Assembly (NCBI GenBank): GCA_963728205.1 | Contig: CAVSIV010000001.1 | Coordinates: 672,001 to 736,000 of the forward strand | Direction of reading: 5' to 3' | Source: an uncultured Chloroflexia bacterium | Lineage (GTDB): Bacteria; Chloroflexota; Dehalococcoidia; UBA2979 | DNA: 64,000 nt | Position numbers and translations under genes: made by a program | Shown here: positions 22,516 through 37,562 of the stretch, piece after piece | Position numbering within the stretch: the first letter of the stretch is position 1 | How the letters are laid out: every line of letters begins with the position of its first letter | Notes under the pieces: model-generated | What the model saw: the letters and a program-made list of their open reading frames with translations, nothing else | What the model was told of the DNA's origin: nothing | The model's database searches: none

Positions 22516-23436
22516 CTAGGGCTCGTCGATCACCGGGTTCTCGAGCTCGCCGAGGCCGGTGATCGCGACGCGCACGCGGTCACCGTGCGTCAGCCACTCG
22601 CGCGGGTCGCGCGCCTGCCCGACGCCGGACGGCGTGCCGGTGAACACGATGTCGCCGGGCCGCAGGGTCATCGCCGTCGAGATGTAGGCGATCAGCGACG
22701 GGATGTCGAAGATGAGGTCGCCCGTCGTCGACTCCTGCTTCAGGACATCGTTCACCCATGTCCGCAGCGTGAGCGCCGCCGGGTCGGGCACCTCGTCGCG
22801 CGTCGCGATCCACGGGCCGGTCGGGCCGTGCGTGTCAAAGCCCTTGCCCATCGTCCAGGTGGCGGCGTGGCGCTGGAAGTCGCGCACGGAGACGTCGTTG
22901 CCGTTCATGTAGCCCGCGACGCAGTCGAGCGCGACGTCCGCCGAGACGTTGCGGGCGTCGCGGCCGATCACGAAGACGAGCTCGCCCTCCCAGTCGACCA
23001 TGCTGCTGGCGCGGGGCACATGGATGGGGCGGCCGGGGCCGCTGATCGCCGTGTCGACCTTCGTGAAGACGATGGGGCGCTCGGGCAGCGTCGCGCCGGT
23101 CTCCGCCGCATGCGCGCGGTAGTTGAGCCCGATGGCGAGCGCCTTGCCTGGGCGCGGGATCGGCGCCTCGAAGCGGAAGCCGGGCTCCGCAACGTCGAAT
23201 AACACGCCGCCGGCGCGCAGGGCGTCGGAATCCCGCGCGGCCCGCCCGGCCGCGTCGTTCAGCGCCGCGCGCGCGGTGTCGAGGCCGGCATCGCCCAGCG
23301 CCAGCAGCGGGATCATCTCCGTGGGCAGCAGCGCGCCGGTAGCCGCGGCCGCGCGCGCGAGGTCGACGACGCGGGCGTCGTCGAGCATCGCCCCGGTGCG
23401 CGTCGTGCCGCGGGAGGTGTAGGTGACGAGGCGCAT
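22516..23436 (-). CDS. Fumarylacetoacetate hydrolase family protein
   Basis: IGLNYRAHAAE, DWEGEL, NDVSVRDFQ, GKGFDT, GDIVFTGTPSGVG. Confidence 0.92.
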   Translation of the reverse strand: MRLVTYTSRGTTRTGAMLDDARVVDLARAAAATGALLPTEMIPLLALGDAGLDTARAALNDAAGRAARDSDALRAGGVLFDVAEPGFRFEAPIPRPGKALAIGLNYRAHAAETGATLPERPIVFTKVDTAISGPGRPIHVPRASSMVDWEGELVFVIGRDARNVSADVALDCVAGYMNGNDVSVRDFQRHAATWTMGKGFDTHGPTGPWIATRDEVPDPAALTLRTWVNDVLKQESTTGDLIFDIPSLIAYISTAMTLRPGDIVFTGTPSGVGQARDPREWLTHGDRVRVAITGLGELENPVIDEP

Positions 23437-23560: not shown

Positions 23561-24157
23561 TCAGGCGGAGCGCGCCTCGGCGGCGGAGGCGGCGTCGAGC
23601 GCGGCGCGCAGCGCGTGCAGCGCACGCATCTGCGCCGCGCGCGCGGCAGCGGCGGTGCAACCGACGCGCTCCGCGATCTCGTCGTACGACAGGCCGTCGA
23701 TCACCCGCAGCCGCGTGATCCAGCGCTGCCGCGCCGTCAACGCCGAAAACGCGATCTCGATGCGCGCGTCGACCTGATCCGCCAGCGCCTGCTCCTCGGC
23801 AGACGGCTCGATCGGGTCGGGGCTCGCGTCGAGCGGGGAGCTCTGCTTCCGCGTCCGGTAGAAGTCCTTGATCGTGTTCGAGGCGATGTGGAAGAGCCAC
23901 ACATTGAACGGGCGCGACTGGTCGCGCCGGTCGATCGCGCGCAGCGCCTTGAGGAACGTGAGCTGGAGCACGTCCTCGGCGTCCTCGGGTTGCGGGAGCC
24001 GCCGCCGCGCGTAGGCCAGCAGGTCGCGCCGGTAGGCGGCGCAGAGCGTGCCGAAGGCGTCGCGGTCGCCGCCCGCCGCACGCGCCGAGAGGTCGCGCAC
24101 GGCGTCGGGCGTCAGCTCGGCCGCAACCGGCCCGAAGGGGAGGATGGCGTCGCTCAT
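23561..24157 (-). CDS. ECF sigma-70 factor (198 aa)
   Basis: Region 2 DAEDVLQLTFLKA..FNVWLFHIASNTIKDFYR; region 4 LTARQR..GLSYDEIAERVG..RALHALR. Confidence 0.9.
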   Translation of the reverse strand: MSDAILPFGPVAAELTPDAVRDLSARAAGGDRDAFGTLCAAYRRDLLAYARRRLPQPEDAEDVLQLTFLKALRAIDRRDQSRPFNVWLFHIASNTIKDFYRTRKQSSPLDASPDPIEPSAEEQALADQVDARIEIAFSALTARQRWITRLRVIDGLSYDEIAERVGCTAAAARAAQMRALHALRAALDAASAAEARSA

Positions 24158-24260
24158 ACCTGGAGAATCGGCTGAGTCGGCGCTGAAGATTACCCGCGCT
24201 CCCCTCTGCGGAACTGGCCGGACCGGCCGACAGGGGCCGCGTGACGCGCCGGGACGTGCG

Positions 24261-24289
24261 AAGGCGGGGGCCGTGGGCGCCCCCGCCTT
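24261..24289 (-). terminator. Hairpin after membrane gene 1 (repeated at 27455-27483)
   Basis: AAGGCGGGGGC ... GCCCCCGCCTT. Confidence 0.5.
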
Positions 24290-24312
24290 GGTGCTGAGCC
24301 GCGGTCCGCCGC

Positions 24313-25146
24313 CTATGCGGCGAGCCGTGCCCGCTTCGCCGCGATGAAGTCGGCGACGTCCTCGGAGGAGGCCTCGACCTCGGCGAGGAGCCGCTCGTAG
24401 TCGCGGATGAGCGCGTTGGCGCTGGCCGCGTCGAGCATGGCGCCCTTCGCCTTGGAGGCTCCCTGGCGGAGGGCCAGGGCGAGCACGCCAACCGGAGCGG
24501 TGAAGGCGGCGAAGCCGAGCGGACCGAGCTCTCGCCAGGAGAGTGCGAGCCCGAGGGCGACGAGGCCCATCACCGCGAAGTGGACGGCGAGCCAGAGGTA
24601 GTTGTCCTTGACGACCTTTCCGAGCGCCTGTCCGGTGGTGCACGAAATCATCGCGCCCACCAGCGTCATGTTGACGATCCACATCGCCAGCCCCGCCGCG
24701 ACGGCGGCGACGACGAGGGTGCCGGCGCTCTCCGGCATGAGCCGGGTGAGCCCCGCGTAGACCCCCGCCGCCGCGGTGCCGGCGAGCACCAGGACGGCGG
24801 AGTTGTAGGCGAGGCGGGAGACCGGCTTGTGGCGGAAGAGCCACGCGGCCAGCCCGACGACGATCGCGAGCGGCACGGCCGCCCCGACGCCGTAGAGGAT
24901 CCCGCCCCCGACGATCGCGGCCGCGGAGACGGACGCGCGCGTCTGGGTGAAGAGCTGGGTGCCCTGGCGTTCGAGCACCGCGGCGAGCGCCAGCATCAGC
25001 AGGAGCCCGCCCCATTCCGGCGGCCGGAGGAAGACCAGGAGGCCTGCTCCGGCGACCGCGCCGAATCCCGTCACCCCGTACAGGAGGGCCTGTGCCCTGC
25101 TCCGGGCGAGGGATGAGATCCACCGTGTGGTGGGACTCTCAGCCAT
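24313..25146 (-). CDS. Multi-TM putative membrane sensor with short C-terminal helix, copy 1
   Basis: About 7-8 TM helices; RLAYNSA and WIVNMTLV motifs; amphipathic tail; GAAAGG RBS. Confidence 0.85.
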   Translation of the reverse strand: MAESPTTRWISSLARSRAQALLYGVTGFGAVAGAGLLVFLRPPEWGGLLLMLALAAVLERQGTQLFTQTRASVSAAAIVGGGILYGVGAAVPLAIVVGLAAWLFRHKPVSRLAYNSAVLVLAGTAAAGVYAGLTRLMPESAGTLVVAAVAAGLAMWIVNMTLVGAMISCTTGQALGKVVKDNYLWLAVHFAVMGLVALGLALSWRELGPLGFAAFTAPVGVLALALRQGASKAKGAMLDAASANALIRDYERLLAEVEASSEDVADFIAAKRARLAA

Positions 25147-25185
25147 GGTGTCGACCTTTCAGCACAACACTCGCTCGGAGGGTGA

Positions 25186-26985
25186 CTAGTCCCAGGTGAT
25201 GGCATCCCAGGTGATGGCGTCCCACGTGATGCTGTCCCAGGTGATCGAGTCCCACGTGATGGCGTCCCACGTGATGGAGTCCCACGTGATCGAGTCCCAC
25301 GTGATGGAGTCCCACGTGATCGAGTCCGGCGACGCCGGCTTGTTCTGGATCGAGCCGTCGCTGCCGATCCACAGGCTCTTCGGGAGCCCCTGGTTCGCGG
25401 CGCCCTGGCTCGGGCCGAACACGGCATCGTAGGCATTCAGCGCCGGCGCGTTGGAGCTGGGGAACGTGTCAGCCGTCCCCGTCAGCTGGGCCTTCACCTG
25501 GTCCGGCGTGAGGGACGGGTTGTGCTGGAGCATCAGCGCGACGGTGCCGGAGACGACCGGGGCCGACTCGGAGGTGCCGCTGAGCATCATGTAGTGCTCG
25601 CCGACACGAAGCTTCGGGTTCTGCAGGTAGAGCAGCGACGGCTTGTTGCCCGTCGTCGCGATCAGGTGCCAGCCCGGGGCAACCAGGTCGGGCTTCTGGA
25701 ACCCGTCGTGCGTCGTGCCGTACGTCGACCACGACGCCAGCGTGTCGTCCGTCGTCTCGAGCGTCGCATTGTCGCTGAAGGCGCCGACGGAGATCACGTA
25801 CGGGTCGTTCGCGGGTGGGTGGTCCGTCGCGAACGCGTCGCTCGTGCCGAGGTTGCCCTCCGACGAGACGACGACGATGCCGTGGAACCACAGCTGCTCA
25901 ATCGCGGCGTCGAGCGGGCTCGTGAAGAAGCTCTCCGGCGTCGACTGCGTGAACGACATGTTCGCGACGCGGATGTTGTACTTCGCCTGGTTGTCCAGCA
26001 CGTACTCGAGACCCGCGAGGACGTCGCCGAGCTCGATGCCCTTTTCGAACGTTCCCACCTGGACGTCGACGATGTTCGCGTCCGGGGCGATACCCATGTA
26101 GCGCCCCTGGCTGTCAGCGCCGTTGCCCGCGATCACGCCGGCCGTGTGCGTGCCATGCCCGTACGGGTCGCGGACGCCCGCGAGCGCCGTGTCGTTCGGG
26201 GTGTAGCGCGCGACCACGCGGCCGCCGAAGTCGGAGCCGACGGCGTGGCTGACGCCGGTGTCGATGACCGCAACGCCGATGCCCTTACCGGTGACTCCCT
26301 CGTCCCAGACGTCGGTTGCGCCGACGACCTGCGGGAACACGGACACGACGTCGGTGTAGTCACCGCGCTGCTTCCCGTCGGGGAGCCTGGAGCCGAGGAT
26401 CGAGGCGCGGTCCTGGTGCGTACCCTTGGGGCCGGCGGCTGCCTTGGGGGCCGGCGTTGCCTTCGGCGCGGGGGCCGCCTTGGTGCCCGGGCCAACCTTC
26501 GGAGCGCGCGCCGCCTTCTTATCCGGTCCGGCCTTCGGGGCCGGAGTCGGGGTCGGGGTCGGCGTGCCCCCCGCCAGCAGCGACGTCCAGTTGTTGCGGT
26601 CTCGTGGGCCGCGGCCCGTCATCTCGATGTTCGAGTTGAGGCTGATCGACTTGACCGACGTGTTGCCGGCCAGCGCGTCGAGCTGGTCGACGGGGATGGT
26701 CGCCTCGACGGCGGGAATGATGTGGTACTGCTGCGACACGGTGCCGCCGGCCGCCTCGACGGCGGCAGCGGTGGCATCGGTATCGCCGGTGGACTGGATG
26801 ATGACGGCGACGAAGCCGTTGTCCTGGTTGGCGGTGTCGTACACGGCGGCGTTGACGTTGCTCGGGCCGGCGGCGCGGGCGGGGGCCTGCGACGCGGGCC
26901 CGAGCATGAGCGCGACCGCGACGAGCGCGACCAGGACGGTGAGGAAGACCGGCCAGCGCCGGCCGGTGAGCTTGTTCAGGACCAC
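25186..26985 (-). CDS. Secreted S8 (subtilisin-like) peptidase with 9 C-terminal (S/A)ITWD repeats, copy 1
   Basis: Signal peptide and prodomain; triad VAVIDTG / YGHGTH / SGTSES; GTG start after GGAAAG. Confidence 0.92.
   Translation of the reverse strand: MVLNKLTGRRWPVFLTVLVALVAVALMLGPASQAPARAAGPSNVNAAVYDTANQDNGFVAVIIQSTGDTDATAAAVEAAGGTVSQQYHIIPAVEATIPVDQLDALAGNTSVKSISLNSNIEMTGRGPRDRNNWTSLLAGGTPTPTPTPAPKAGPDKKAARAPKVGPGTKAAPAPKATPAPKAAAGPKGTHQDRASILGSRLPDGKQRGDYTDVVSVFPQVVGATDVWDEGVTGKGIGVAVIDTGVSHAVGSDFGGRVVARYTPNDTALAGVRDPYGHGTHTAGVIAGNGADSQGRYMGIAPDANIVDVQVGTFEKGIELGDVLAGLEYVLDNQAKYNIRVANMSFTQSTPESFFTSPLDAAIEQLWFHGIVVVSSEGNLGTSDAFATDHPPANDPYVISVGAFSDNATLETTDDTLASWSTYGTTHDGFQKPDLVAPGWHLIATTGNKPSLLYLQNPKLRVGEHYMMLSGTSESAPVVSGTVALMLQHNPSLTPDQVKAQLTGTADTFPSSNAPALNAYDAVFGPSQGAANQGLPKSLWIGSDGSIQNKPASPDSITWDSITWDSITWDSITWDAITWDSITWDSITWDAITWDAITWD
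25189..25323 (-). repeat. 9 x 15-bp coding tandem repeat = (S/A)ITWD
   Basis: Units differ only at synonymous positions and at Ser/Ala. Confidence 0.95.
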
Positions 26986-27058
26986 TGCACTTTCCAATCG
27001 CTGTTGGCGTTGGCGAATGCGTCACCGCTCGGCGCGTGCGTCGCGCCTCGCGGCGGGT

Positions 27059-27156
27059 CCCCGTTCGGCAGCCCGGCTACCCGTGGCTCTGTGTGAGCCG
27101 GGAGGGCCCGTGGCTTTGCGTCCCCCGGTTCCCCGGGGTTTGCCGTTGTCGTGGGG
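27059..27156 (-). ncRNA. c-di-GMP-I (GEMM) riboswitch, proximal type, upstream of peptidase 1
   Basis: CGACAACGGCAAACCCCGG-GGAA-CCGGGGGACGCAAAGCCACGGGCCC...GGGTAGCCGGGCTGCCG. Confidence 0.9.
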
Positions 27157-27258
27157 CCAGCTGGACTAGATGTGTGGCATCGTCTCGACTCCTCCGTCTC
27201 GCGGCCGCCTGGCGGCGGCTGCGCCCCTGATCCGAGGAGGGCGGAGGCATCGGGCCTC

Positions 27259-27362
27259 GCAACCTTCGGTAGCCCGGCCGTCATGACCCCTCGTACGAGG
27301 GGCGGTAGACCCGTGGGCTTTGCGCCACCCGGTTTCCCGGGCTTTGCCATTTCTCGGATTGC
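27259..27362 (-). ncRNA. c-di-GMP-I riboswitch, distal type, upstream of peptidase 1
   Basis: CGAGAAATGGCAAAGCCCGG-GAAA-CCGGGTGGCGCAAAGCCCACGGGTC...GACGGCCGGGCTACCG. Confidence 0.88.
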
Positions 27363-27410
27363 CGCTTGCCAGGGACGGCTCGCCGTTGCGGCGGGGCGTC
27401 CCTTACCCGG

Positions 27411-27440
27411 GAAGACGAACGACGGGCACTCCGCGTGACG
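27411..27440 (-). promoter_or_regulatory. ECF-type promoter CGTCACG-N16-CGTCTTC
   Basis: One of 5 copies with identical 16-nt spacing. Confidence 0.7.
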
Positions 27441-27506
27441 CGCCGGGACGTGCGAAGGCGGGGGCCGTGGGCGCCCCCGCCTTGGTGCTGAGCCGCGGTC
27501 CGCCGC

Positions 27507-28341
27507 CTATGCGGCGAGCCGTGCCCGCTTCGCCGCGATGAAGTCGGCGACGTCCTCGGAGGAGGCCTCGACCTCGGCGAGGAGCCGCTCGTAGTCGCGG
27601 ATGAGCGCGTTGGCGCTGGCCGCGTCGAGCATGGCGCCCTTCGCCTTGGAGGCTCCCTGGCGGAGGGCCAGGGCGAGCACGCCAACCGGAGCGGTGAAGG
27701 CGGCGAAGCCGAGCGGACCGAGCTCTCGCCAGGAGAGTGCGAGCCCGAGGGCGACGAGGCCCATCACCGCGAAGTGGACGGCGAGCCAGAGGTAGTTGTC
27801 CTTGACGACCTTTCCGAGCGCCTGTCCGGTGGTGCACGAGATCATCGCGCCCACCAGCGTCATGTTGACGATCCACATCGCCAGCCCCGCCGCGACGGCG
27901 GCGACGACGAGGGTGCCGGCGCTCTCCGGCATGAGCCGGGTGAGCCCCGCGTAGACCCCCGCCGCCGCGGTGCCGGCGAGCACCAGGACGGCGGAGTTGT
28001 AGGCGAGGCGGGAGACCGGCTTGTGGCGGAAGAGCCACGCGGCCAGCCCGACGACGATCGCGAGCGGCACGGCCGCCCCGACGCCGTAGAGGATCCCCGC
28101 CCCCGACGATCGCGGCCGCGGAGACGGACGCGCGCGTCTGGGTGAAGAGCTGGGTGCCCTGGCGTTCGAGCACCGCGGCGAGCGCCAGCATCAGCAGGAG
28201 CCCGCCCCATTCCGGCGGCCGGAGGAAGACCAGGAGGCCTGCTCCGGCGACCGCGCCAAATCCCGTCACCCCGTACAGGAGGGCCTGTGCCCTGCTCCGG
28301 GCGAGGGATGAGAGCCACCCGGTGGTGGAAGTCTCAGCCAT
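27507..28341 (-). CDS. Multi-TM putative membrane sensor, copy 2 (one extra C in a C-run near 28095)
   Basis: Nearly identical to 24313-25146 apart from the first few codons; GGATCCCCG versus GGATCCCG. Confidence 0.8.
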
Positions 28342-28382
28342 TGTGTCGACCTTTCAGCGCAACACTCACGCTCGGAGGGTGA

Positions 28383-30068
28383 CTAGTCCCAGGTAATCGA
28401 GTCCCAGGTGATGGCGTCCCACGTGATGCTGTCCCAGGTGATCGAGTCCCACGTGATGGCGTCCCACGTGATCGAGTCCCACGTGATGCTGTCCCAGGTG
28501 ATCGAGTCCCACGTGATCGAGTCCCACGTGATCGACGCCGGGCCGGCGGGGATGTTCTGGATCGAGCCGTCGCTGCCGATCCACAGGCTGCGCGGCAGCC
28601 CCTGGTTCGCGAGGCTCGCGTCCGCGGTGAACACCGCGCCGTACGCGTCGAGCGCCGGTGCGGTCGAGCCGGTGAAGGCCTTGCCCGTGTCGACGATCCG
28701 CGCCTTCACCTGGTCGGGCGTGAGCGACGGGTTCTGCTGCAGCATCAGGGCGACGGTGCCGGAGACCACCGGGGCCGCCGACGAGGTGCCGCTGAGCTTC
28801 ATGTAGCGTGAGCCGACACGCAGGTCCGGGTTGTCAAGGTACAGCAGCGACATCGCGTTGCCGGTGGTGGCGATCAGGCGCCATCCCGGGGCGATCACGT
28901 CCGGCTTCTGGAAGCCGTCGTGCGTCGTGCCGCGGCTCGACCAGTCCTTGAGGAAGTCGTCGGATGTGTCGAGCGTGGCGTTGTCGCTGAAGGCGCCCAC
29001 GGTGATGACGTACGGGTCGTTCGCTGGCGGGTGGTCCGTCACGTAGGCGTCGGACGTCCCGCGGTTGCCCGCAGCGGTCACGACGACGATGCCGTGGAAC
29101 CAGAGCTGCTCGACGGCGGCGTCGAGCGGGCTCGTGAAGAAGCTCTCCGGCGTCGACTGCGTGAACGAGAGGTTCGCGACGCGGATGTTGTACTGGGCCT
29201 GGTGGTCCAGCGTGTACTGGAGTCCGGCGATCACGTCGCCCAGCTTGATGCCCAGGGCGTAGTCACCGACGCGGACCGCGATGATGTTCGCGTCCGGTGC
29301 GATGCCCATGTAGCGCCCAAGGCTGTCGGTGCCGTCGCCGGCGACGATGCCGGCCACGTGCGTGCCGTGACCGTAGGCGTCGCTGCTGGTCAGTCCGCTC
29401 GGGGCGTAGCTCGCGACGATGCGGTTGCCGAAGTCGTTGCGACCGACGTCGTTCACGCCGGTGTCGATGATGGCGACCCCGACGCCCTGGCCCATGACGC
29501 CTTCATCCCAGGCGTCGGTGGCGCCGACGACCTGCGGGAACACCGAGACCACGTCCGTGTAGCGACCGCGCGCCTTCCCGTTCGGGAGGCTCTGGCCGAG
29601 GATCGAGTACCGGTCGGCCTTCGGCGTCGCGCTGTCGGTCGTGGGCGTGGGCGTCGCCGTGGCCTTGAGCAGCGACTTCCAGTCCGGGGCACCGAGACCG
29701 GTCGGCTGGATGTCCGAGTTCAGGCTGATCGACTTGACCGACGGGTTGGCGGCCAGCGCGTCGAGCTGGTCGACGGGGATGGTCGCCTCGACGGCGGGGA
29801 TGATGTGGAACTGCTGCGAGACCGTGCCGCCGGCAGTCGCGACGGCCGCGGCGGTGGCATCGGTATCGCCGGTGGACTGGATGATGACGGCGACGAAGCC
29901 GTTGTCCTGGTTGGCGGGGTCGAGGACGGCCGCGTGCACGTTGCTCGGGCCGGCCGCGCGGGCGGGTGCCTGCGAGGCGGGGCCGAGCATGAGCGCGACC
30001 GCGACGAGCGCGACCAGGACGGTGAGGAAGACCGGCCAGCGCCGGCCGGTGAGCTTGTTCAGGACCAC
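28383..30068 (-). CDS. Secreted S8 peptidase with 10 C-terminal (S/A)ITWD repeats, copy 2
   Basis: Signal peptide; triad VAIIDTG / YGHGTH / SGTSSA; AAGN oxyanion motif. Confidence 0.92.
   Translation of the reverse strand: MVLNKLTGRRWPVFLTVLVALVAVALMLGPASQAPARAAGPSNVHAAVLDPANQDNGFVAVIIQSTGDTDATAAAVATAGGTVSQQFHIIPAVEATIPVDQLDALAANPSVKSISLNSDIQPTGLGAPDWKSLLKATATPTPTTDSATPKADRYSILGQSLPNGKARGRYTDVVSVFPQVVGATDAWDEGVMGQGVGVAIIDTGVNDVGRNDFGNRIVASYAPSGLTSSDAYGHGTHVAGIVAGDGTDSLGRYMGIAPDANIIAVRVGDYALGIKLGDVIAGLQYTLDHQAQYNIRVANLSFTQSTPESFFTSPLDAAVEQLWFHGIVVVTAAGNRGTSDAYVTDHPPANDPYVITVGAFSDNATLDTSDDFLKDWSSRGTTHDGFQKPDVIAPGWRLIATTGNAMSLLYLDNPDLRVGSRYMKLSGTSSAAPVVSGTVALMLQQNPSLTPDQVKARIVDTGKAFTGSTAPALDAYGAVFTADASLANQGLPRSLWIGSDGSIQNIPAGPASITWDSITWDSITWDSITWDSITWDAITWDSITWDSITWDAITWDSITWD
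28386..28535 (-). repeat. 10 x 15-bp coding tandem repeat = (S/A)ITWD
   Basis: Synonymous codon variation among units. Confidence 0.95.
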
Positions 30069-30141
30069 TGCACTTTCCAATCGCTGTTGGCGTTGGCGAA
30101 TGCGTCACCGCTCGGCGCGTGCGTCGCGCCTCGCGGCGGGT

Positions 30142-30239
30142 CCCCGTTCGGCAGCCCGGCTACCCGTGGCTCTGTGTGAGCCGGGAGGGCCCGTGGCTTT
30201 GCGTCCCCCGGTTCCCCGGGGTTTGCCGTTGTCGTGGGG
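30142..30239 (-). ncRNA. c-di-GMP-I riboswitch, proximal type, upstream of peptidase 2
   Basis: Same sequence as 27059-27156. Confidence 0.9.
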
Positions 30240-30340
30240 CCGGGAGCTGGTTACGGGCTCGTCATGTTCCGAACCTCCGCTTCGCGACGCCCGGCGGCGT
30301 CTGCGCCCCTGATCCGAGGAAGACGGAGGCGGGCAGCCTC

Positions 30341-30443
30341 GCAACTTCGGTAGCCCGGCCGTCATGGCCCCTCGTACAAGGGGCGGTAGACCCGTGGGCT
30401 TTGCGCCACCCGGTTTCCCGGGCTTTGCCATTTCTCGGATTGC
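30341..30443 (-). ncRNA. c-di-GMP-I riboswitch, distal type, upstream of peptidase 2
   Basis: GGCAAAGCCCGG-GAAA-CCGGGTGGCGCAAAGCC...GGCCGGGCTACCG. Confidence 0.88.
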
Positions 30444-30491
30444 CGCTTGCCAGGGACGGCTCGCCGTTGCGGCGGGGCGTCCCTTACCCGG

Positions 30492-30521
30492 GAAGACGAA
30501 CGTCAGACCGGGTTTGTGACG
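30492..30521 (-). promoter_or_regulatory. ECF-type promoter CGTCACA-N16-CGTCTTC
   Basis: Conserved bipartite motif; spacer sequence differs from the other copies. Confidence 0.72.
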
Positions 30522-30588
30522 TATGTCGCGGGCGCCGTCGACCCTGAGCCGTCCGGCGCCCGCGCGTTTCATGTTGATCAGCCGCCGG

Positions 30589-30795
30589 CTAATCCCAGGT
30601 GATCGAGAACGTGCCGTAGCTCGGCCCGGGGGCCGGAGCGGGCGTCGAGGCGGCCGGGGGCCCGATCTGGCTCGACGAGGGCTTGGCCGCCGAGCTGACA
30701 CCCGGCGAGCCGAACAGCGAAGCACCGGCGAGGATTCCGCCGGCGACGACGGCGACGACGATGCGGTGGAGGTGACCAAACTTGCGCAGGACCAT
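30589..30795 (-). CDS. 68-aa secreted mini-protein ending in SITWD (candidate peptide precursor)
   Basis: MVLRKFGHLHR + hydrophobic stretch + SSA-A, Pro/Ser/Ala linker, ...YGTFSITWD-stop; start context matches the peptidases; has its own riboswitch pair and promoter. Confidence 0.85.
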   Translation of the reverse strand: MVLRKFGHLHRIVVAVVAGGILAGASLFGSPGVSSAAKPSSSQIGPPAASTPAPAPGPSYGTFSITWD

Positions 30796-30838
30796 TGCAC
30801 TGTCCCCATTCCGGATCATGAGACTCGTGGTGCGTGGT

Positions 30839-30937
30839 CCCCGTTCGGTAGCCCGGCTACCCGTGGCTCGGTGAGAGCCGGGAGGGCCCGTGGCTTTGCG
30901 TCCCCCGGTTCCCCGGGGTTTGCCGTTTGTCGTGGGG
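30839..30937 (-). ncRNA. c-di-GMP-I riboswitch, proximal type, upstream of the mini-protein
   Basis: GGCAAACCCCGG-GGAA-CCGGGGGACGCAAAGCC...GGTAGCCGGGCTACCG. Confidence 0.9.
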
Positions 30938-31040
30938 TACGTGACTCAGGTGCGACTGGTCATCGGCCCCTCCGCTCCTGCAGCCCCCGGTGCGGGTCGC
31001 TGCTCCTCAGAATCCGAGGAAGACGGAGGCGGGAGGCCTC

Positions 31041-31143
31041 GCAATCTTCGGTAGCCCGGCCGTCATGACCCCTCGACGAGGGGCGGTAGACCCGTGGGCT
31101 TTGCGCCACCCGGTTTCCCGGGTTTTGCCGTTTCTCGGATTGC
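31041..31143 (-). ncRNA. c-di-GMP-I riboswitch, distal type, upstream of the mini-protein
   Basis: GGCAAAACCCGG-GAAA-CCGGGTGGCGCAAAGCC...GGCCGGGCTACCG. Confidence 0.88.
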
Positions 31144-31190
31144 CTGCATGCGCGGGACGCGCGACCTCCGTCGAGAGTCCCGTCACCGGA

Positions 31191-31220
31191 GAAGACGAAC
31201 GGGTACCGGCCGGTGTGACG
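31191..31220 (-). promoter_or_regulatory. ECF-type promoter CGTCACA-N16-CGTCTTC
   Basis: Conserved bipartite motif. Confidence 0.72.
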
Positions 31221-31340
31221 CGAACGGGCGAGGATGGCGCGCACCGGCGCGGGCGCCGGTGGCGAGACGCGGGCGCACCGCCCGCGTCACGCGCGACGCC
31301 GCCGCTCCACGCGTGCACCGGACGAACCGAGGGGCGGGGG

Positions 31341-32174
31341 CTAGGCGGCGACCTGCGGGCGGTGCGTGGCGATGAACTCCGCGACGTCCTCCGAGGAGGA
31401 CTCCACCTCGGCCAGCAGCCGCTCGTACTCCGCGATCAGCTGGTTCGCGCTCGCGGCGTCGAGCATGGCGCCCTGCGCCTTCGACGCGCCCTGGCGCAGC
31501 GCCAGCGCCAGCACGCCGACCGGCGCGGTGAACGCCGCGAAGCCGAGCATCCCCAGTTCGCGCCATGACAGCGCGAGTCCGAGCGCAACGAGTCCCATCA
31601 CGGCGAAGTGCACCGCGAGCCACAGGTAGTTCTCGCGGATGACGGCGAGCAGCGGCTGCCCGGTCGTGAGCGCGATCATCGCGCCGACCAGGCTCATGTT
31701 GACGGTCCACATCGCGATGCCGGCGCCGACGGCCGCGACCACGAAGGTCGCCGCGCTCGCGGGCAGGAGCGACGTGATCAGCGCGTACGTCCCGGCGGAC
31801 GCCGCGCCGGCCAGGATCAGCACCGCCGAGTTGTAGGTCAGCCGAGAGAACGGCTTGTGCCGGAAGAGCCAGGCCGCGAGGCCCACGGCGATCGCCAGCG
31901 GGACCGCGGCGCCGACGCCGTAGAGGATGCCGGCACCCATGATCGCCGCGGCTGAGACCGAGGCGCGCGTCTGCGTGAAGAGCTGCGTGCCCTGCCGCTC
32001 GATGACAGCCGCGAGCGCGATGGTGAGCAGGAGGCCGCCCCACTCGCGGGGCTGGAGGAAGGCGAGGAAGCCGAGGCCGGCGAGCGCGCCGATGACGGAG
32101 ACCGCCACGAGCAGCACCTGCGGGCGGTTGGCGAGGAGCGACGGCTGCGGCCGCGCGTCGGTCGTCGTTGCCAT
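31341..32174 (-). CDS. Multi-TM putative membrane sensor, copy 3 (diverged)
   Basis: 277 aa, collinear with copy 1 (ERQGTQLFTQTRASVSAAAI, NYLWLAVHF, EYERLLAEVE); GAGAGGG RBS. Confidence 0.87.
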   Translation of the reverse strand: MATTTDARPQPSLLANRPQVLLVAVSVIGALAGLGFLAFLQPREWGGLLLTIALAAVIERQGTQLFTQTRASVSAAAIMGAGILYGVGAAVPLAIAVGLAAWLFRHKPFSRLTYNSAVLILAGAASAGTYALITSLLPASAATFVVAAVGAGIAMWTVNMSLVGAMIALTTGQPLLAVIRENYLWLAVHFAVMGLVALGLALSWRELGMLGFAAFTAPVGVLALALRQGASKAQGAMLDAASANQLIAEYERLLAEVESSSEDVAEFIATHRPQVAA

Positions 32175-32283
32175 GTCGTCCCTCTCGTTCCCTCGACCGA
32201 ACGGGCGCGTCTTCCTTCGGGTTGCCCCGGCGCCGCGCGGGCGCGATCCGTTCCCTCCGCCGTGCGGAGGGCCGCTCGTTTCC

Positions 32284-32313
32284 TAGGACGATGCGCGGCG
32301 CCGATCTGTGACG
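32284..32313 (-). promoter_or_regulatory. ECF-type promoter CGTCACA-N16-CGTCCTA
   Basis: Upstream of membrane gene 3; no riboswitch in this leader. Confidence 0.65.
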
Positions 32314-32334
32314 TCCGCACCGCCCCGCGTTCGA

Positions 32335-32754
32335 CTAGCCGAACGGCAACGTGCCCCGTTCGGCCAGCAGCCGCATGATTTCGAACCCGCCGACCAGGCC
32401 CGAGACCACCGACAGCGCCACGATCAGCCCCGTCTGGCCGGCGCGCATCAGCGCGCTCGCGCCCGCCGCGGCGCCCCCGGCGGTCGTTGCCTTGTCGCCG
32501 GCGCGGAGGTAGCGCACCTCCTGCTTCGCCGGCCGGCCCTCGATCCCCATCGCGTCATACGCGGTGCGGTTCGTGGGGTTCGAGAGGACGTCGAACGCCC
32601 TGCGCAGTCGGTCGACCTTGTTGGGGTCTGCGACGTGCACGCGCATGAGGCGGCCGTACGCCGCGCGGATCACGGGATCCGACGCACGCGGCGAGACTTC
32701 CAGCTCCTCGTAGAGCAGGAACCCCGGCTGCTCATAGTCGTACTGAAGGGACAT
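32335..32754 (-). CDS. J-domain-like protein lacking HPD, with C-terminal TM helix
   Basis: LYEELEVSPRAS..VIRAAYGRLMRVH(VAD)P..AFDVLSNP..RTAYD; C-terminal hydrophobic segment. Confidence 0.75.
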   Translation of the reverse strand: MSLQYDYEQPGFLLYEELEVSPRASDPVIRAAYGRLMRVHVADPNKVDRLRRAFDVLSNPTNRTAYDAMGIEGRPAKQEVRYLRAGDKATTAGGAAAGASALMRAGQTGLIVALSVVSGLVGGFEIMRLLAERGTLPFG

Positions 32755-32828
32755 CTTCGCCCCCGAGCCGCACCGGCTGGCAAACAAGATCATCGGCACG
32801 GGCGAGGCGATCGCCCATGCCGACGGGT

Positions 32829-32928
32829 CCCGTTCGGCGGCCCGGCTGCCCGCGACCACCTGCGCGGCGGCCGGGAGGGCCCGTGGCTTTGCGTCCCCCG
32901 GTTCCCCGGGGTTTGCCGTTTCGCGGGG
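32829..32928 (-). ncRNA. c-di-GMP-I riboswitch (single) upstream of the J-like gene
   Basis: GGCAAACCCCGG-GGAA-CCGGGGGACGCAAAGCCACGGGCCC...GGGCAGCCGGGCCGCCG. Confidence 0.88.
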
Positions 32929-33018
32929 CGCGCCTCTCAACGCGCCGTGCACACCCGCCCGACGCGCGCTTGCACGCCGCATCCTGGAGAGAGCCTGCTG
33001 CTCCCCCTCGCTACGGAA

Positions 33019-33048
33019 GAAGACGAGCGGGCGTGCCGCGCTGTGACG
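33019..33048 (-). promoter_or_regulatory. ECF-type promoter CGTCACA-N16-CGTCTTC
   Basis: Conserved bipartite motif at the locus edge. Confidence 0.72.
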
Positions 33049-33066
33049 CGGGATGCCGGTGCCCGG

Positions 33067-35665
33067 TCAGGCGTCCAGCCAGAGGGCGACCGGGAACGTC
33101 GCCAGCGCGTCGTCGAGGCGGTGGCGCGACGACGGACCGCGGCGGCGGCCGGTGAAGACGTCGACGAACGAGCGCGTCGCGATCGCGGGAGGCAATCGCA
33201 ACGCGGTGTCGCCCCAGCGCAGCGGCGGCAGCCCGGTGCCCGGGCGCGAGGGCGGGAGCATGGCAGACGCGAGCCGCGGCACGACCACGACGGCCGTGCG
33301 TTCCGCGTACCGCCGCGCGAACGCAACGACCCGCTCGGCATGCGCGCCGGTCGCCGCGAGCGGCTCGTAGTCGCCCTCGAGGAAGAGCGCCGGGTCCTCG
33401 CGCCGCTCGCGCAGTGCCCGCGAGAGCGCATAGAGCTTCGCGCGGCCGTCGGTCCACCCGCGCAGCAGCGGCTCGAGGCCGCCCGCCGGCGGTGCCGGCG
33501 GCCCCGCGGCGTCGAGCGCGGCCAGCGCCGTGCGCCGCTCGTCGAAGTCGACGGGCCGGCGGTTGTCCGGGTCGACCAGCGAGAGGTCCCACAGGTCGGC
33601 GCCCTGGTACGTGTCCGGCACGCCGGGCGACGCCGCCTTGAGCACGACCTGCGCCAGCGCGTGCAGGGCGCCGATCGTCGCCGCGCGCTCGGCGAGCGGC
33701 CGCACGGCGTCGACGAACGCCGCGTCGTGGAGCGCCCCGGTGACGAAGCGGTCGAGGCCGCGCTCGTACGCCATCTCCGGCTCGAATCCAGCTGGTGTGC
33801 GTCTCAGCCTCGCGGGCGGCCTTTCGAAGGTACCCGCGGACGCGCACGACATACGCGTCGTCGAGCGCGGCGCCGACGGGCCACGTGCCGACCAGCACCT
33901 GGTAGAAGGCATACTCGCGCGTGGGCGACGGCGCCGCGTCGCCGAGGCTCGCCCGCAGCGGGGCGAGGTGCGCCGACCAGCGCCGGACGGCGTCCTCCCA
34001 CTCCGCGGACAGCTCCGAGAGCGCGCTGATGCGGAGGCGCGTGTCCTCACCGCGCTTGTGATCGTGCGTGGCCGTCGCGAGCATCGTGCGCGGCCAGCGG
34101 CGGCGACGGGCGTCGTTCTGGCGATGGAAGCGCTCGACGCTCGTGCCGAAGCGGTCGGGCGAGCCGCCGACCTCGCAGAGCGAGAGCAGCCGGGGATAGC
34201 GGAAGAACGCGGTGTCTTCGAGCCCCTTCGCCTGCACCGCCGGTGTGAGCTGCTGGAGCGCCATCACCGCGCGGCGCGCGGCGCCGGGCGCCGGCGCGGC
34301 GAGCGCATCGGCCGCGGCGTCGAGCGCCGCGGGGTTCGCGTCGACGGCGAGCCGGCCCGCGATCTGCCGCGCGCGAGCCACGACGCTGCGCGCGGCCGGG
34401 TCGAGGGTGTCCTCGCTGTGGTAGGTCCGATACACGGGGAGGGCGGCGAGGAGCGCGCGCACGGCGGCGGCGAACGGTTCGGGGGGCGGGGGCGCGAGGG
34501 CGGCGCCGCCCGCGCCGAGCTCGCCGGCGGCGGCGGCGAGCGCCCCGTGCAGACGGGCGGCGGCGGCGTCGAGCTGCACGCGCAGCGTGCCGTCCGCGAT
34601 CTCGCGCCGGCTCGCGAACGCGAGCTCGCCGTACGCGCGCTCGTCGCCCGTGAACGCCCGATACAGCCGCGTCAGCGCGCGCTCGGCGTGCGCGTCGACG
34701 AACAGGCCGCCCACGTCGTTGAGGAAGTCGTAGCCGGTGGTGCCGTCGCACGACCAGGCAGGCGGCAGGTGCTCGTCGCCCTCGAGGATCTTCTCTACCG
34801 AGACATACGACGGGGCGAGCCGCTCGCGCACGCGCTCCAGGTACCCGGCCGGGTCGGCGAGCCCGTCCGGGTGGTCGACGCGCAGACCCTGCACCGCTCC
34901 GTCGGCGACGAGCCGCCGCGGCAGCGCGTGGACGCGGTCGAAGACCGCGGGGTCCTCGACGCGCAGGCCGACGAGGTCGTCGATCAGGAAGAAGCGGCGA
35001 TAGTTCACGCGCTCCTTGCCCGAGAGCCAGTGCTCGAGGCGGTAGTGCTGCCGCTCGAGGAGCGCCGGGAGAGCCGTGGTCGCCGCCGCGGCGGCGTCTT
35101 CCGGGCGCAGCGGCAGACGATGCTCGAAGTAGCGCAGCCAGCCGCCGTCCGCATCGCTCTCGACGGTGAGCTCGCCGCGCGCCATCACCGCAGCGGGTTC
35201 GTCGCCGAGGATCGGCAGGACGATGCGCCCGTGCAGCGCGGGGTCCGCCGGCTCCCAGTCGATGTCGAAGAACGGCGCGTACGGCGAGTCGCGGCCGCGC
35301 CGCAGCACGTCCTCCCACCAGGCGTTGCGGCCGGCGGCCACGCCCATGTGGTTCGGCACGATGTCGATGACCTGGCCCAGGCCGAGCCGCCGCTGCTCCG
35401 AGACGAGCCGCGCGTACGCCGCTTCGCCGCCGAGCTCGGGGTTGAGCCGCTCCGGATCGATGACGTCGTAGCCGTGCGTGCTGCCGGGCGCTGCCGCCGC
35501 GATCGGCGAGAGGTAGACGTGCGTGATGCCGAGGTCGCGGAGGTAGGGGAGGACGGCGGCGGCGTCGTCGAAGGTGAAGCCGGCGTGCAGCTGGAGCCGG
35601 TAGGTGGCGGCGACCGGTGCGATCGGGCGCGCAGCCCGGCGCGCGGACGGTCGCGCGCTAGGCAC
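33067..35665 (-). CDS. treY: Malto-oligosyltrehalose synthase (frameshift near 33785)
   Basis: ATYRLQ, GSTHGYDV, DIVPNHMG, NYRRFF, GLRVDHPDGL, THDHKRGED, SLVDPDNRRPVDF. Confidence 0.9.
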
Positions 35666-37562
35666 GCGGACCCTCCCGCGTCGAGCGGAGCACCACCGCG
35701 CCCGGGCGCGTGAAGCGCGCGGTAGGCGGCCCCGAATCGAGGTCGGTGGTGACCGGGGTGGGATCCGGCGCCAGGCCGCCGTCCTCAGTGGTGAGCACGA
35801 GCTGCCAGCGTGTGCCGGCAGGCGGGTCGAGGATCGGGTGGCCTCGGTGCTCACCGCCGCCGCGCAGTCGCGCGATCACGAGGAGCTCCGCGTCGGTGCC
35901 CGCCGCGCGCCGCAGGGCGACCGTGTCCGCGTCGAGCGCGACGGCCTGCTGCCCGGCGGCCGGCCCCACCTCGCGCCGCAGCGCGAGCAGCGCGCGGTGC
36001 AGCCGCAGCGTCGACGCGTGCGGCTCGCGGTCGCGCTCGGTCCAGTCGAGCCGGCTACGGGCGAAGGTCGCGGGATCCTGCGGGTCGGGGATGCGCTGGC
36101 GGCTGGCAGGGTCGCGGAACGCCTCCCAGTGGCGAAACTCGTTGCGGCGGCCCTCGGTGACGAGGCGGCCCAGCTCGTCGTGGTGGTCGGTGAAGTAGAG
36201 GAACGGCGTGCTCGCCGCCCACTCCTCGCCCATGAAGAGCAGCACCGAGGCGCCGCCGCAGAGCAGGAGCGCGGCGGCCGCGCGCACCGCCTCGGGCGCG
36301 GCCTCGTCCGTGAGGCGCGTGCCGAACGCGCGGTTGCCGATCTGGTCGTGGTTCTGCAGGCAGTGGACGAAGCGCGGCAGGGCGAGCCCATCGGGACTGG
36401 TGCCGCGCGGCTCATCCCAGAACGCCGAGTGCTCTCCGGTGTACAGCCAGCCGCGCGCGAGCGACGTCGCGATCTCCGCGGTGGTGCCGGCGTAGTCCTG
36501 GAAGTAGCCCTCGTGATCGCCCGCCAGCAGGCGTCGCGTCGCATGATGGAAGTCGTCGGCGAAGGTCGCGTCGAGCCCCCAGCCGCCGTTCGCGGGCGGC
36601 CGCACGACGGTGTCGAGGTTGCGATGGTCCTCCGCGATCACGACCGGCCGTCCGCGCCCCGTCCGCGCCCCGTGCACCGCGTCCGCGTACTCCGCGAGGA
36701 AGTGGCGCGGACCGTCGTCGCGCAGCGCGTGCGTGGCGTCGAGGCGGAAGCCGTCGACGTGGTACTCGTGCAGCCAGTGCAGCGCGCTCTCGACGAAATA
36801 GCCGCGCACCGCACCGGCGCCGGGCCCGTCGAGGTTGATGGCGGCGCCCCACGGCGTGTGGTGCCGCGGGTTGAAGTACTGGCGCGCGTACGTGCCCTGG
36901 TACGCGCCGTCCGGCCCGAAGTGGTTGTAGACGACGTCGAGGATCACGCCGAGCCCCAGTGCGTGCGCACGGTCGACGAGCGCGCGCAGATCGTCGGGGC
37001 GTCCGTAGCAGCGGGCGGGAGCGAAGAGGTCGACGCCGTCGTAGCCCCAGTTGCGATCGCCCGCGAAGTCGGCGACGGGCAGCAGCTGCACCGCCGTGAC
37101 GCCGAGCTCCGCGAGCTCGTCCAGCCGCGCGGTCGCGGCCGCGAACGTGCCCTCGCGCGTGAACGTGCCGACGTGCAGCTCGTAGATCGCGAGGGCGTCG
37201 CGGTCGAGGCCGTGCCAGCCGTCGTCGGTCCAGCGAAACGCGGTGGGATCGATGACCTCGGAGGGCCCGTGCACACCCTCCGGCTGGAAGCGCGAGGCGA
37301 CGTCGGGCAGCGCCGGGCCCTCCTCGAGCACATAGCGGTAGCGCGCGCCCGCGTCGATGCCGGGCACGATGCCGCTGAAGTAGCCGGCGTCGTCGCGCGC
37401 GAGCGGATGCTCGCCGCGCGGGCGTCCTGCGTCGTCCTCGACGCGCACCGCCAGGCGTCGCGGGGAAGGCGCCCACGTGCGGAACCGCACGCCGTCGCCG
37501 TCGAGCCACGCGCCGAGGGACGGCCGCCAGCCGGTGCCGGTGCCGGTGCGGGGGCCGGTCAT
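35658..37562 (-). CDS. treZ: Malto-oligosyltrehalose trehalohydrolase
   Basis: QPEGVHGPS, YELHVGTFT, RNWGYDGV, RLDATH, LQNHDQIGNR, IPDPQD. Confidence 0.93.
   Translation of the reverse strand: MTGPRTGTGTGWRPSLGAWLDGDGVRFRTWAPSPRRLAVRVEDDAGRPRGEHPLARDDAGYFSGIVPGIDAGARYRYVLEEGPALPDVASRFQPEGVHGPSEVIDPTAFRWTDDGWHGLDRDALAIYELHVGTFTREGTFAAATARLDELAELGVTAVQLLPVADFAGDRNWGYDGVDLFAPARCYGRPDDLRALVDRAHALGLGVILDVVYNHFGPDGAYQGTYARQYFNPRHHTPWGAAINLDGPGAGAVRGYFVESALHWLHEYHVDGFRLDATHALRDDGPRHFLAEYADAVHGARTGRGRPVVIAEDHRNLDTVVRPPANGGWGLDATFADDFHHATRRLLAGDHEGYFQDYAGTTAEIATSLARGWLYTGEHSAFWDEPRGTSPDGLALPRFVHCLQNHDQIGNRAFGTRLTDEAAPEAVRAAAALLLCGGASVLLFMGEEWAASTPFLYFTDHHDELGRLVTEGRRNEFRHWEAFRDPASRQRIPDPQDPATFARSRLDWTERDREPHASTLRLHRALLALRREVGPAAGQQAVALDADTVALRRAAGTDAELLVIARLRGGGEHRGHPILDPPAGTRWQLVLTTEDGGLAPDPTPVTTDLDSGPPTARFTRPGAVVLRSTREGPRA

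Follow-up and report, generated by a model that had tools for sequence, protein, structure and literature searches.

A subtilase with a Trp-Asp repeat tail and its MASE9-type membrane neighbor as a candidate signaling module in Chloroflexota

Genes of the locus

We analyzed a window of 64,000 nucleotides (nt) from the genome of an uncultured Chloroflexota bacterium (GenBank assembly GCA_963728205.1; contig CAVSIV010000001.1, positions 672,001 to 736,000) and, within it, a locus encoding two S8 family subtilases that end in tandem Trp-containing pentapeptides, each followed by a gene for a polytopic membrane protein. The window has a G+C content of 72%. All genes of the locus are on the minus strand, as are the regulatory features described below, and they run from position 33048 to position 23561 in the following order: a J-like protein, the transmembrane (TM) protein TM3, a 68-amino-acid (68-aa) open reading frame (ORF), S8-2, TM2, S8-1, TM1, and an extracytoplasmic function (ECF) sigma factor. 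This arrangement of co-oriented genes plus an ECF sigma gene had been described in an earlier reading made from the letters alone (here called the sequence-only reading), and it is confirmed by the ORFs and by Pfam and TIGR02937 matches.

S8-1 (599 aa; 26985-25186) and S8-2 (561 aa; 30068-28383) both translate from GTG starts and match Pfam PF00082 above its cut-off (E = 2.9e-42 and 1e-43). Both proteins show the DTG, HGTH, and GTS motifs, and S8-2 has a signal peptide and an intact D/H/S triad. In an alignment of 33 sequences that includes S8-2, the conserved columns are D179, H210, S410, and N311, the last being the nearly invariant oxyanion Asn. The tails consist of nine (S/A)ITWD units in S8-1 (25189..25323) and ten in S8-2 (28386..28535), with each array running to the stop codon; a recount of the units gave the numbers and the terminal position that the sequence-only reading had reported. 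A six-frame scan of the 4.1-Mb genome found that C-terminal ITWD is unique to this locus. The linker between the pro-region and the catalytic domain is hypervariable (window 26400-26560; L020:8600-8900), being rich in Pro, Thr, Ala, and Lys in S8-1, short in S8-2, and long and rich in Ala, Glu, and Lys in G060, a genome of the same genus.

Each subtilase gene is followed by a gene for a membrane protein, TM1 (25146-24313) or TM2 (28341-27507), and a third paralog, TM3 (277 aa; 32174-31341), lies farther upstream. TM1 and TM3 are stand-alone MASE9-like proteins, and TM1 has a conserved cytoplasmic C-terminal helix. The second S8-TM unit arose from the first by a recent duplication, the DNA of the leaders and TM genes being 97 to 100% identical in most of the compared segments and 95% identical in one. 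TM2 is 99% identical to TM1 at the DNA level and differs from it by seven substitutions and a 1-nt insertion (GGG to GGGG at 28098), which breaks the frame and splits the gene into ORFs at 27403-28341 and 27507-28070. This frame break may represent a pseudogene, a phase variant, or an assembly error. The three paralogous multi-TM proteins listed by the sequence-only reading are thus all present as paralogs, but TM2 is frameshifted in the assembly.

The first gene of the locus encodes a J-like protein of 139 aa (32754-32335) with a TM segment at its C terminus. Its DnaJ score is 27.2 bits against a cut-off of 27.8 bits, and it reads HVAD (within RVHVADP) in place of HPD, in keeping with its earlier description as a J protein that lacks HPD. 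An ortholog is present in G060 and reads RTHAASR at the HPD position.

The 68-aa ORF (30795-30589) has a signal-peptide-like N terminus and ends in FSITWD at its stop codon. Its G+C content at third codon positions, 0.88, is similar to that of the neighboring genes (0.92 to 0.96). Its self-match excepted, it has no homolog at E ≤ 10 among 5.8 billion proteins, and when 15 loci were examined for short ORFs with the respective unit at their end, the window alone had one and the other 14 did not. The mini-precursor that this ORF had been proposed to encode is thus not a general companion of such subtilases.

Riboswitches, promoter-like motifs, and the sigma factor

Seven cyclic di-GMP (c-di-GMP)-I aptamers in the locus score above the Rfam gathering threshold (RF01051, 44.6 to 69 bits; cut-off, 35 bits), arranged as three pairs and a single aptamer. 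A pair precedes S8-1 (distal, 27265..27358, 65.7 bits; proximal, 27063..27153, 63.8 bits), S8-2 (distal, 30346..30439, 69 bits; proximal, 30146..30236, 63.8 bits), and the 68-aa ORF (distal, 31047..31139, 66.9 bits; proximal, 30844..30934, 63.5 bits), so that Rfam bears out the claim of a riboswitch pair for every SITWD-encoding gene. The proximal aptamers of S8-1 and S8-2 also match RF03167 (c-di-GMP-I-GGC) at 61.5 bits (cut-off, 59 bits), below their RF01051 scores, and the GGC assignment is not robust. The single aptamer (32833..32927, 44.6 bits) lies ahead of the J gene and has right behind it a terminator-like hairpin followed by AUCUUGUUUG (32791..32825). Folding of the two leader halves resolved no expression platform or ON/OFF direction, and a clear terminator-like hairpin was found in the J-gene leader alone.

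Tandem c-di-GMP-I doublets are common, with 347 counted in the accessible part of one report (PMC9481103), and Bc3-5 of Bacillus thuringiensis is described, likewise in the accessible text, as tandem c-di-GMP-I riboswitches (PMC4759541). The paired leaders of the locus are like these in having two full aptamers in series, for which a steeper, more digital response is expected. However, they differ in that a 4-kb stretch contains three pairs, each with an ECF-type promoter of its own, in a member of the Chloroflexota and ahead of a new kind of regulated gene.

The genome encodes nine GGDEF proteins and contains 10 c-di-GMP-I riboswitches in total. The three that lie elsewhere (C1:774752-774840, C1:782192-782286, and C6:264006-264096) precede a TadG-like cluster, a Flp pilin/TadE/CpaB operon, and a gene for a 512-aa secreted Ala/Pro-rich protein, with the gene names assigned by eye from the translations. 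By their predicted products, these targets appear to make up a surface-lifestyle regulon, in keeping with the signaling reading favored below.

A promoter-like motif of the ECF type, GTCACA-n16-CGTC, is found before the J-gene leader (33022..33047), TM3 (32287..32312), the 68-aa ORF leader (31194..31219), and the S8-2 leader (30495..30520), and a GTCACG variant is found before the S8-1 leader (27414..27439). There are 13 exact matches genome-wide, where about 6.7 would be expected from composition, and 4 of the 13 fall inside a 3-kb stretch of the locus. The sequence-only reading had assigned the same bipartite promoter to every transcription unit except the sigma gene; the motif is real at five sites, but neither TM1 nor TM2 has its own promoter, and both start about 40 nt past the S8 stop codons. 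The motif is seen again ahead of riboswitch leaders in G060 and in metagenome contig L025, which together with the window's own genome (G000) are the three closest loci, and it is absent from G009 (same family, other genus) and from the other scanned loci.

The last gene of the locus (24157-23561; 198 aa) encodes a sigma factor of the ECF type, as indicated by a TIGR02937 score of 97.9 bits (cut-off, 42.9 bits) and by matches to Sigma70_r2 and r4_2. The window motif is almost identical to, and has the same spacing as, the ECF41 promoter signature TGTCACA-n16-CGTC given in the accessible part of PMC3426412. However, region 4 of the window sigma ends at about residue 185, the protein is without the C-terminal extension of about 100 aa that defines ECF41, and the targets differ.

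Behind the sigma gene is a gene of the fumarylacetoacetate (FAA)-hydrolase family (22516-23410), which occupies the same place in G060 and in metagenome contig L026; its position is probably plain synteny. Directly upstream of the locus (33011-37562) are two long minus-strand ORFs (947 and 634 aa) that appear by eye to encode glycoside-hydrolase or trehalose-synthesis enzymes.

MASE9-type membrane proteins and the conserved pairing

A word-indexed search with the TM protein returned 21 relatives, mostly unnamed Chloroflexota proteins of 270 to 300 aa, together with one 472-aa HD-GYP protein. A profile made from 16 members of this family (A1) gave 599 matches at E ≤ 0.001 among 1.84 billion representatives. 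We scanned 36 of these against Pfam: all 30 of the long ones carry HD-GYP, GGDEF, EAL, or histidine kinase domains C-terminal to or around the matched region, and in 14 of the 36 Pfam MASE9 covers the same residues (hmmsearch E = 1e-20 to 1e-25). Furthermore, hhalign matched A1 to an alignment of nine proteins with above-cut-off MASE9 scores, picked from A1's own matches, at 99.95% over 222 columns (E = 1.5e-37). Together, the MASE9-bearing relatives and the hhalign match indicate that TM1 to TM3 are stand-alone MASE9-type domains. The membrane sensor role suggested by the sequence-only reading therefore falls within a known sensor-domain family. Pfam MASE9 is found in the window's own genome at C4:85529 (35.5 bits) and C1:59665 (20.2 bits) only, and a PDB search with the TM profile gave no matches.

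MASE9 is described as an 8-TM sensor domain of HD-GYP and GGDEF-EAL proteins, with about eight hydrophobic segments, two of which are short, and with short, poorly conserved outer loops; the accessible part of the defining preprint argues for intramembrane ligand binding and names no ligand or partner (bioRxiv 10.1101/2021.11.05.467447). A hydropathy scan of TM1 finds seven or eight hydrophobic segments, including a Gly-rich stretch at residues 71-105. The relatives found here share their domain family and their HD-GYP or GGDEF-EAL partners with the MASE9 proteins TM1467 of Thermotoga maritima and HdgA of Streptomyces venezuelae, whereas the window proteins stand alone, ending after a helix of about 50 residues (ERLLAEVE-SSED), predicted to be cytoplasmic, instead of an output enzyme. 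An S8 neighbor is not mentioned in the accessible part of the MASE9 preprint, which was the sole relevant source that a literature search for "MASE9" found, supplementary files being outside that search.

The repeat was sought at the DNA level in 851 Chloroflexota genomes and the flanks of the matches were then read; the reversed pattern, used as a control, matched in only three genomes. At all 14 evaluable loci where an S8 gene has a C-terminal xxxW[D/E] array, the next gene on the same strand is MASE9-like, with one of these matches being weak. The linkage of such subtilases to homologs of TM1, posed as a check by the sequence-only reading, is thus positive. Outside the 14 are G413 and G166 (S8 W-tails at contig edges), G056 (contig start), and G015. 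Pattern matches in G188, G182, and G125 are not S8 tails and were dropped, as was a 55-aa fragment at a contig end in G116. Scans of genomic and metagenomic contigs with the TM profile gave only one and three loci, respectively.

In the window's own genome, S8-1 and S8-2 with their (S/A)ITWD tails are followed by the stand-alone TM1 and TM2, and at another site (G000:C1:58100-61400; L078; C1:60k) a subtilase with six SSYWD units is followed by a 700-aa MASE9-like-GGDEF-EAL protein (A1 E = 3.6e-13). This SSYWD subtilase reads in two overlapping frames and is frameshifted or misassembled. Within the same genus, G060:C25 has a J-like gene, a TM gene, two riboswitches, an S8 gene with 21 AITWD units that then ends in AVLED, a second TM gene, a sigma gene, and the FAA-hydrolase gene. 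At G060:C83 (seven GIRWD/GIKWD units), G061:C238 (eight GIRWD units), and G061:C8 (ATYWD), also of this genus, the S8 gene is followed by one for a MASE9-like-(PAS)-GGDEF-EAL protein. G009 has one riboswitch, an S8 gene with 14 GI[TSLQ]W[DE] units, and a 261-aa TM homolog. The remaining loci are in other families. G389 has two, one with 12 NITWD/NVTWD units after a GIRWG unit and one with 17 NVTWD units, each followed by a MASE9-GAF-HD-GYP gene with a MASE9 match above the cut-off (29.0 and 30.4 bits). In G309, nine NVLWD-type units are followed by MASE9-HD-GYP. In G115 and G289, SVSWD tails are followed by MASE9-like proteins of 236 and 237 aa (A1 E = 2e-9 and 1e-7; 24.1 bits with Pfam in G289) and then by a GGDEF gene. 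In G162, an LLTWD tail is followed by a histidine kinase with a polytopic N terminus that matches A1 by hhalign alone (76.7%, E = 2e-5, 179 columns).

The output domain therefore varies by lineage, from none to GGDEF-EAL, PAS-GGDEF-EAL, a separate GGDEF gene, HD-GYP, GAF-HD-GYP, or a histidine kinase. Since outputs have been shuffled while the adjacency of S8 and MASE9 persists, the subtilase is tied to the sensor domain and not to any one enzyme. As judged from predicted domains and aptamers, every lineage connects the module to c-di-GMP. That the c-di-GMP connection extends beyond this locus, as the sequence-only reading had supposed, is seen in the TM relatives that lie beside such S8 genes and are fused to HD-GYP or GGDEF-EAL.

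Five well-supported groups appear in both the S8 domain tree and the MASE9 domain tree. Related units accompany related modules (xxYWD, GI[RK]WD, and xITWD), and unit sequence follows module lineage. Three genomes, G000, G060, and G061, have two modules each with clearly different units, and the two modules of G389 differ by I/V only. A MASE9-GGDEF-EAL gene at C4:84600-86200 (L019, L022; 35.5 bits) groups as sister to the proteins paired with GI[RK]WD subtilases in G060 and G061 and has no upstream subtilase; its S8 partner may have been lost.

Riboswitches are restricted to the loci with a stand-alone MASE9 protein (G000, G060, G009, and metagenome contig L025). None was found at the 11 loci with a signaling enzyme or kinase fused to MASE9 or encoded behind it (L041 and 10 others, the latter covering 93 kb). 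Co-occurrence with riboswitches, which the sequence-only reading had posed as a check, is accordingly limited to the stand-alone-MASE9 clade.

The sigma gene lies directly behind the TM gene in all three of the close relatives with sequence there (G000, G060, and L026), and the ERLLAEVE-SSED helix is kept in this sigma-bearing clade and missing from the G009 protein, which belongs to a locus without a sigma gene. These observations, along with the ECF-type promoter-like motif ahead of every transcription unit, would fit a stand-alone MASE9-like protein that acts as an unusual membrane anti-sigma of the adjacent ECF sigma, with the subtilase as its site-1 protease and the tail only tethering the enzyme to its substrate. 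We consider this improbable. No anti-sigma domain was detected in scans of the locus proteins, and such a role would leave unexplained both the pairing with MASE9-HD-GYP or GGDEF-EAL fusions, where there is no sigma, and the selection on unit sequence described below.

Trp-Asp tails as a candidate input of MASE9

With the C-terminal 126 residues of S8-2 as the query, 69 S8 homologs were retrieved. In 61 of them, xxxWx units occur in runs of four or more (range, 4 to 21), and in 8 of these 61 the array ends exactly at the C terminus. The unit types differ by lineage and include (S/A)ITWD, GITWD, NVTWD, SVSWD, SSYWD, GIRWD, NIAWD, AIKWG, and QMRWD. Within arrays, the DNA of the units has diverged with almost no effect on the protein. 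The 21 AITWD units of G060 have 6 DNA versions (synonymous differences [pS], 0.40; nonsynonymous differences [pN], 0), the 17 NVTWD units at G389:C12 have 7 (pN, 0), the six SSYWD units are each different in DNA, and the window arrays have a pS of 0.43 to 0.54 and a pN of 0.06 to 0.07. With many synonymous and almost no amino acid differences, the arrays are old enough for silent divergence, and the unit sequence is under purifying selection at all five positions.

Our favored explanation, to which we give a probability of roughly 0.5, is that the locus is a duplicated and rewired copy of a conserved two-gene Chloroflexota signaling module in which the tail is the cognate input of the adjacent MASE9 domain. 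The first gene would encode a Sec-exported, AprX-like S8 subtilase with a C-terminal xxxW[D/E] pentapeptide array; the second, immediately downstream, would encode the polytopic MASE9-family sensor domain, for which the Trp-Asp array would be the extracellular input. Most likely, the subtilase would process its own tail, and the resulting short Trp peptides would partition into the membrane and bind MASE9; less likely, the uncut tail would serve as a tethered multivalent ligand. Self-release is deemed the likelier of the two because the copy number is variable (down to four), arrays end at the C terminus, the sensor is thought to bind within the membrane, and S8 proteases of Bacillus offer a precedent.

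In most lineages, MASE9 would drive the fused or adjacent HD-GYP, GGDEF(-EAL), or histidine kinase output, so that c-di-GMP would be the output of the module. In this genus, the sensor appears to have lost its enzyme domain and to have retained the conserved cytoplasmic helix. The locus would be transcribed from the ECF-type GTCACA-n16-CGTC promoters, presumably by the sigma encoded at the operon end, and a tandem c-di-GMP-I pair would gate each S8 or peptide transcript, so that here c-di-GMP would be an input. The pairing of riboswitches could make expression depend steeply on c-di-GMP, and the cytoplasmic helix of the sensor may act on the ECF sigma, closing a loop via the five promoters. 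The sequence-only reading had the peptidase release SITWD and AITWD peptides that the TM proteins sense; both the release and the sensing are purely inferential. Its interpretation stands in part: the linkage, the MASE9 sensor family, the c-di-GMP connection, and the tracking of units hold, but the mini-precursor, the riboswitches, and the ECF motif are not general features.

The tail could instead fold into a solenoid, such as a divergent beta-helix of pentapeptide repeats. This repeat domain would anchor the subtilase at the cell surface or set its orientation there, and no peptide would be released from it. MASE9 would then hold, release, or report the protease in the manner of LapD/LapG, and the substrates would be matrix or adhesin proteins of a c-di-GMP surface program, a setting with which the pili and the secreted low-complexity protein under riboswitch control elsewhere in the genome are consistent. 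The period of W is strictly five residues across the 33 aligned proteins, with a hydrophobic residue two positions before each W. A similar five-residue period, with inward-type hydrophobics at i and i-2, is found in pentapeptide repeat proteins (Pentapeptide_4, Rfr-type beta-helix), to which one tail has a weak match; the tails differ from these in having Trp where Leu or Phe is usual, in reaching no Pfam cut-off, in their highly variable unit number, and in the identity of their units.

Several findings favor such a fold and weigh against a tail that serves as a signal. A distant clade (P0201-P0222) has a fixed array of nine units in which variants are tied to position (AFDWQ is invariably unit 5) and a conserved C-terminal extension of 17 aa, so that its degenerate tail looks like a folded domain. 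The NVTWD tail has a sub-threshold match to Pfam Pentapeptide_4 (24.2 bits; cut-off, 38 bits) and to LD_SV2, the SV2 luminal beta-helix, and the NITWD tail is likewise among the sub-threshold Pentapeptide_4 and SV2 luminal-domain matches. Several tails finish not in a unit but in degenerate sequences resembling caps (AVLED, SMVTE, and TVGRLD). Further points also weigh against the favored reading. The 14 loci amount to about seven module lineages in a single phylum, and, because neighboring genes are co-inherited, matching trees are no proof of co-evolution. In the same order, eight or nine MASE9-like genes lack an S8 gene upstream. TM1, TM3, and the G009 protein have no direct Pfam MASE9 (PF20972) match even at E ≤ 5, and the 68-aa ORF is an orphan.

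On the other side, arrays of four units exist and unit number ranges from 4 to 21 among close relatives, which is a poor fit to a fold with four units per coil. A solenoid would be expected to accumulate changes at its exposed positions, whereas the arrays of 21 and 17 units have a pN of 0. Neither the window tails nor the G060 tail match any Pfam model even at E ≤ 10, and a sequence search of PDB with the tail found no similar solved chain, the best E value (0.37) being noise. The outer loops of MASE9 are short and poorly conserved in the accessible description of the domain (bioRxiv 10.1101/2021.11.05.467447). Overall, we regard the folded domain as a serious rival, though less likely than a tail that serves as a signal.

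The weak match of the S8 domain to the PatA/PatG family (E = 4e-9, far under the cut-off) raises a different use of the tail, as the multi-core precursor of a secreted bioactive peptide that is antimicrobial or akin to ribosomally synthesized and posttranslationally modified peptides, with the membrane protein providing immunity or export. Multicopy cores next to an S8 protease are reminiscent of the repeat precursors of cyanobactins and of fungi. However, no modifying enzyme, transporter, or cyclase was found in the locus, and the partner is a signaling sensor domain that in relatives is fused to c-di-GMP enzymes, which together make this reading highly improbable.

Returning to the tail as the input of MASE9, we tentatively suggest a more specific form, in which the subtilase would carry its own multicopy pheromone. 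Clipped Trp-Asp peptides would be read within the membrane by the cognate MASE9 domain and would set c-di-GMP or, here, the ECF sigma; the unit sequences would act as orthogonal "pherotypes," two of which could be present in one genome.

Phr pentapeptides of Bacillus are matured by subtilisin, Epr, and Vpr. The module resembles this Rap/Phr (RRNPPA) type of signaling in its putative secreted precursor, its five-residue C-terminal units, its candidate S8 maturing proteases, and its tandem copies, and the 68-aa ORF, itself an orphan, is built like a Phr precursor. According to the accessible text of PMC11343458, the C-terminal pentapeptide pheromones that S8 proteases mature in Bacillus include tandemly duplicated ones. 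The module differs in that the array lies within the protease itself and in that the candidate receptor is a polytopic membrane domain and not a tetratricopeptide repeat (TPR) receptor of imported peptides; the locus has no gene for a cytoplasmic TPR receptor. As output it would have an ECF sigma or the turnover of c-di-GMP, it occurs in another phylum, and it is known here from sequence alone.

In the LapD/LapG system, an extracytoplasmic protease is coupled to an inner membrane c-di-GMP signaling protein that controls surface attachment. The module is similar in combining a protease with a membrane c-di-GMP signaling protein. However, LapG, a cysteine protease, has no repeat tail, LapD combines a periplasmic domain with a degenerate GGDEF-EAL, and the families are unrelated. 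The module would work most like Phr-type or Agr-type signaling, with LapD/LapG as the rival comparison, yet it belongs to none of the three. Its parts are members of known families (S8, MASE9 by profile, c-di-GMP-I, and ECF sigma), and as a whole it matches no described system that we found. Neither the tail nor the stand-alone MASE9-like protein is covered by an NCBIfam or Pfam model, and a literature search that left supplementary files aside did not find SITWD (in a biological sense), ITWDSITWD, ITWDAITWD, VTWDNVTWD, or ITWEDITWE.

Many c-di-GMP enzymes and histidine kinases carry MASE9 as an orphan sensor domain that is widespread. Its strictly conserved neighbor at these loci, a secreted protease whose Trp-Asp repeat tail is specific to the lineage, offers a concrete, testable candidate for its input. 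The same module appears to be wired to c-di-GMP in two ways, through enzyme fusions, where c-di-GMP would be the output, and through tandem riboswitches, where it would be the input. Peptide-type signaling is thereby suggested in a phylum of mostly uncultured environmental bacteria. If the Trp-Asp peptides do act as pheromones, they would be the first ligand class for MASE9 and the first peptide-based route of cell-cell signaling into c-di-GMP in Chloroflexota.

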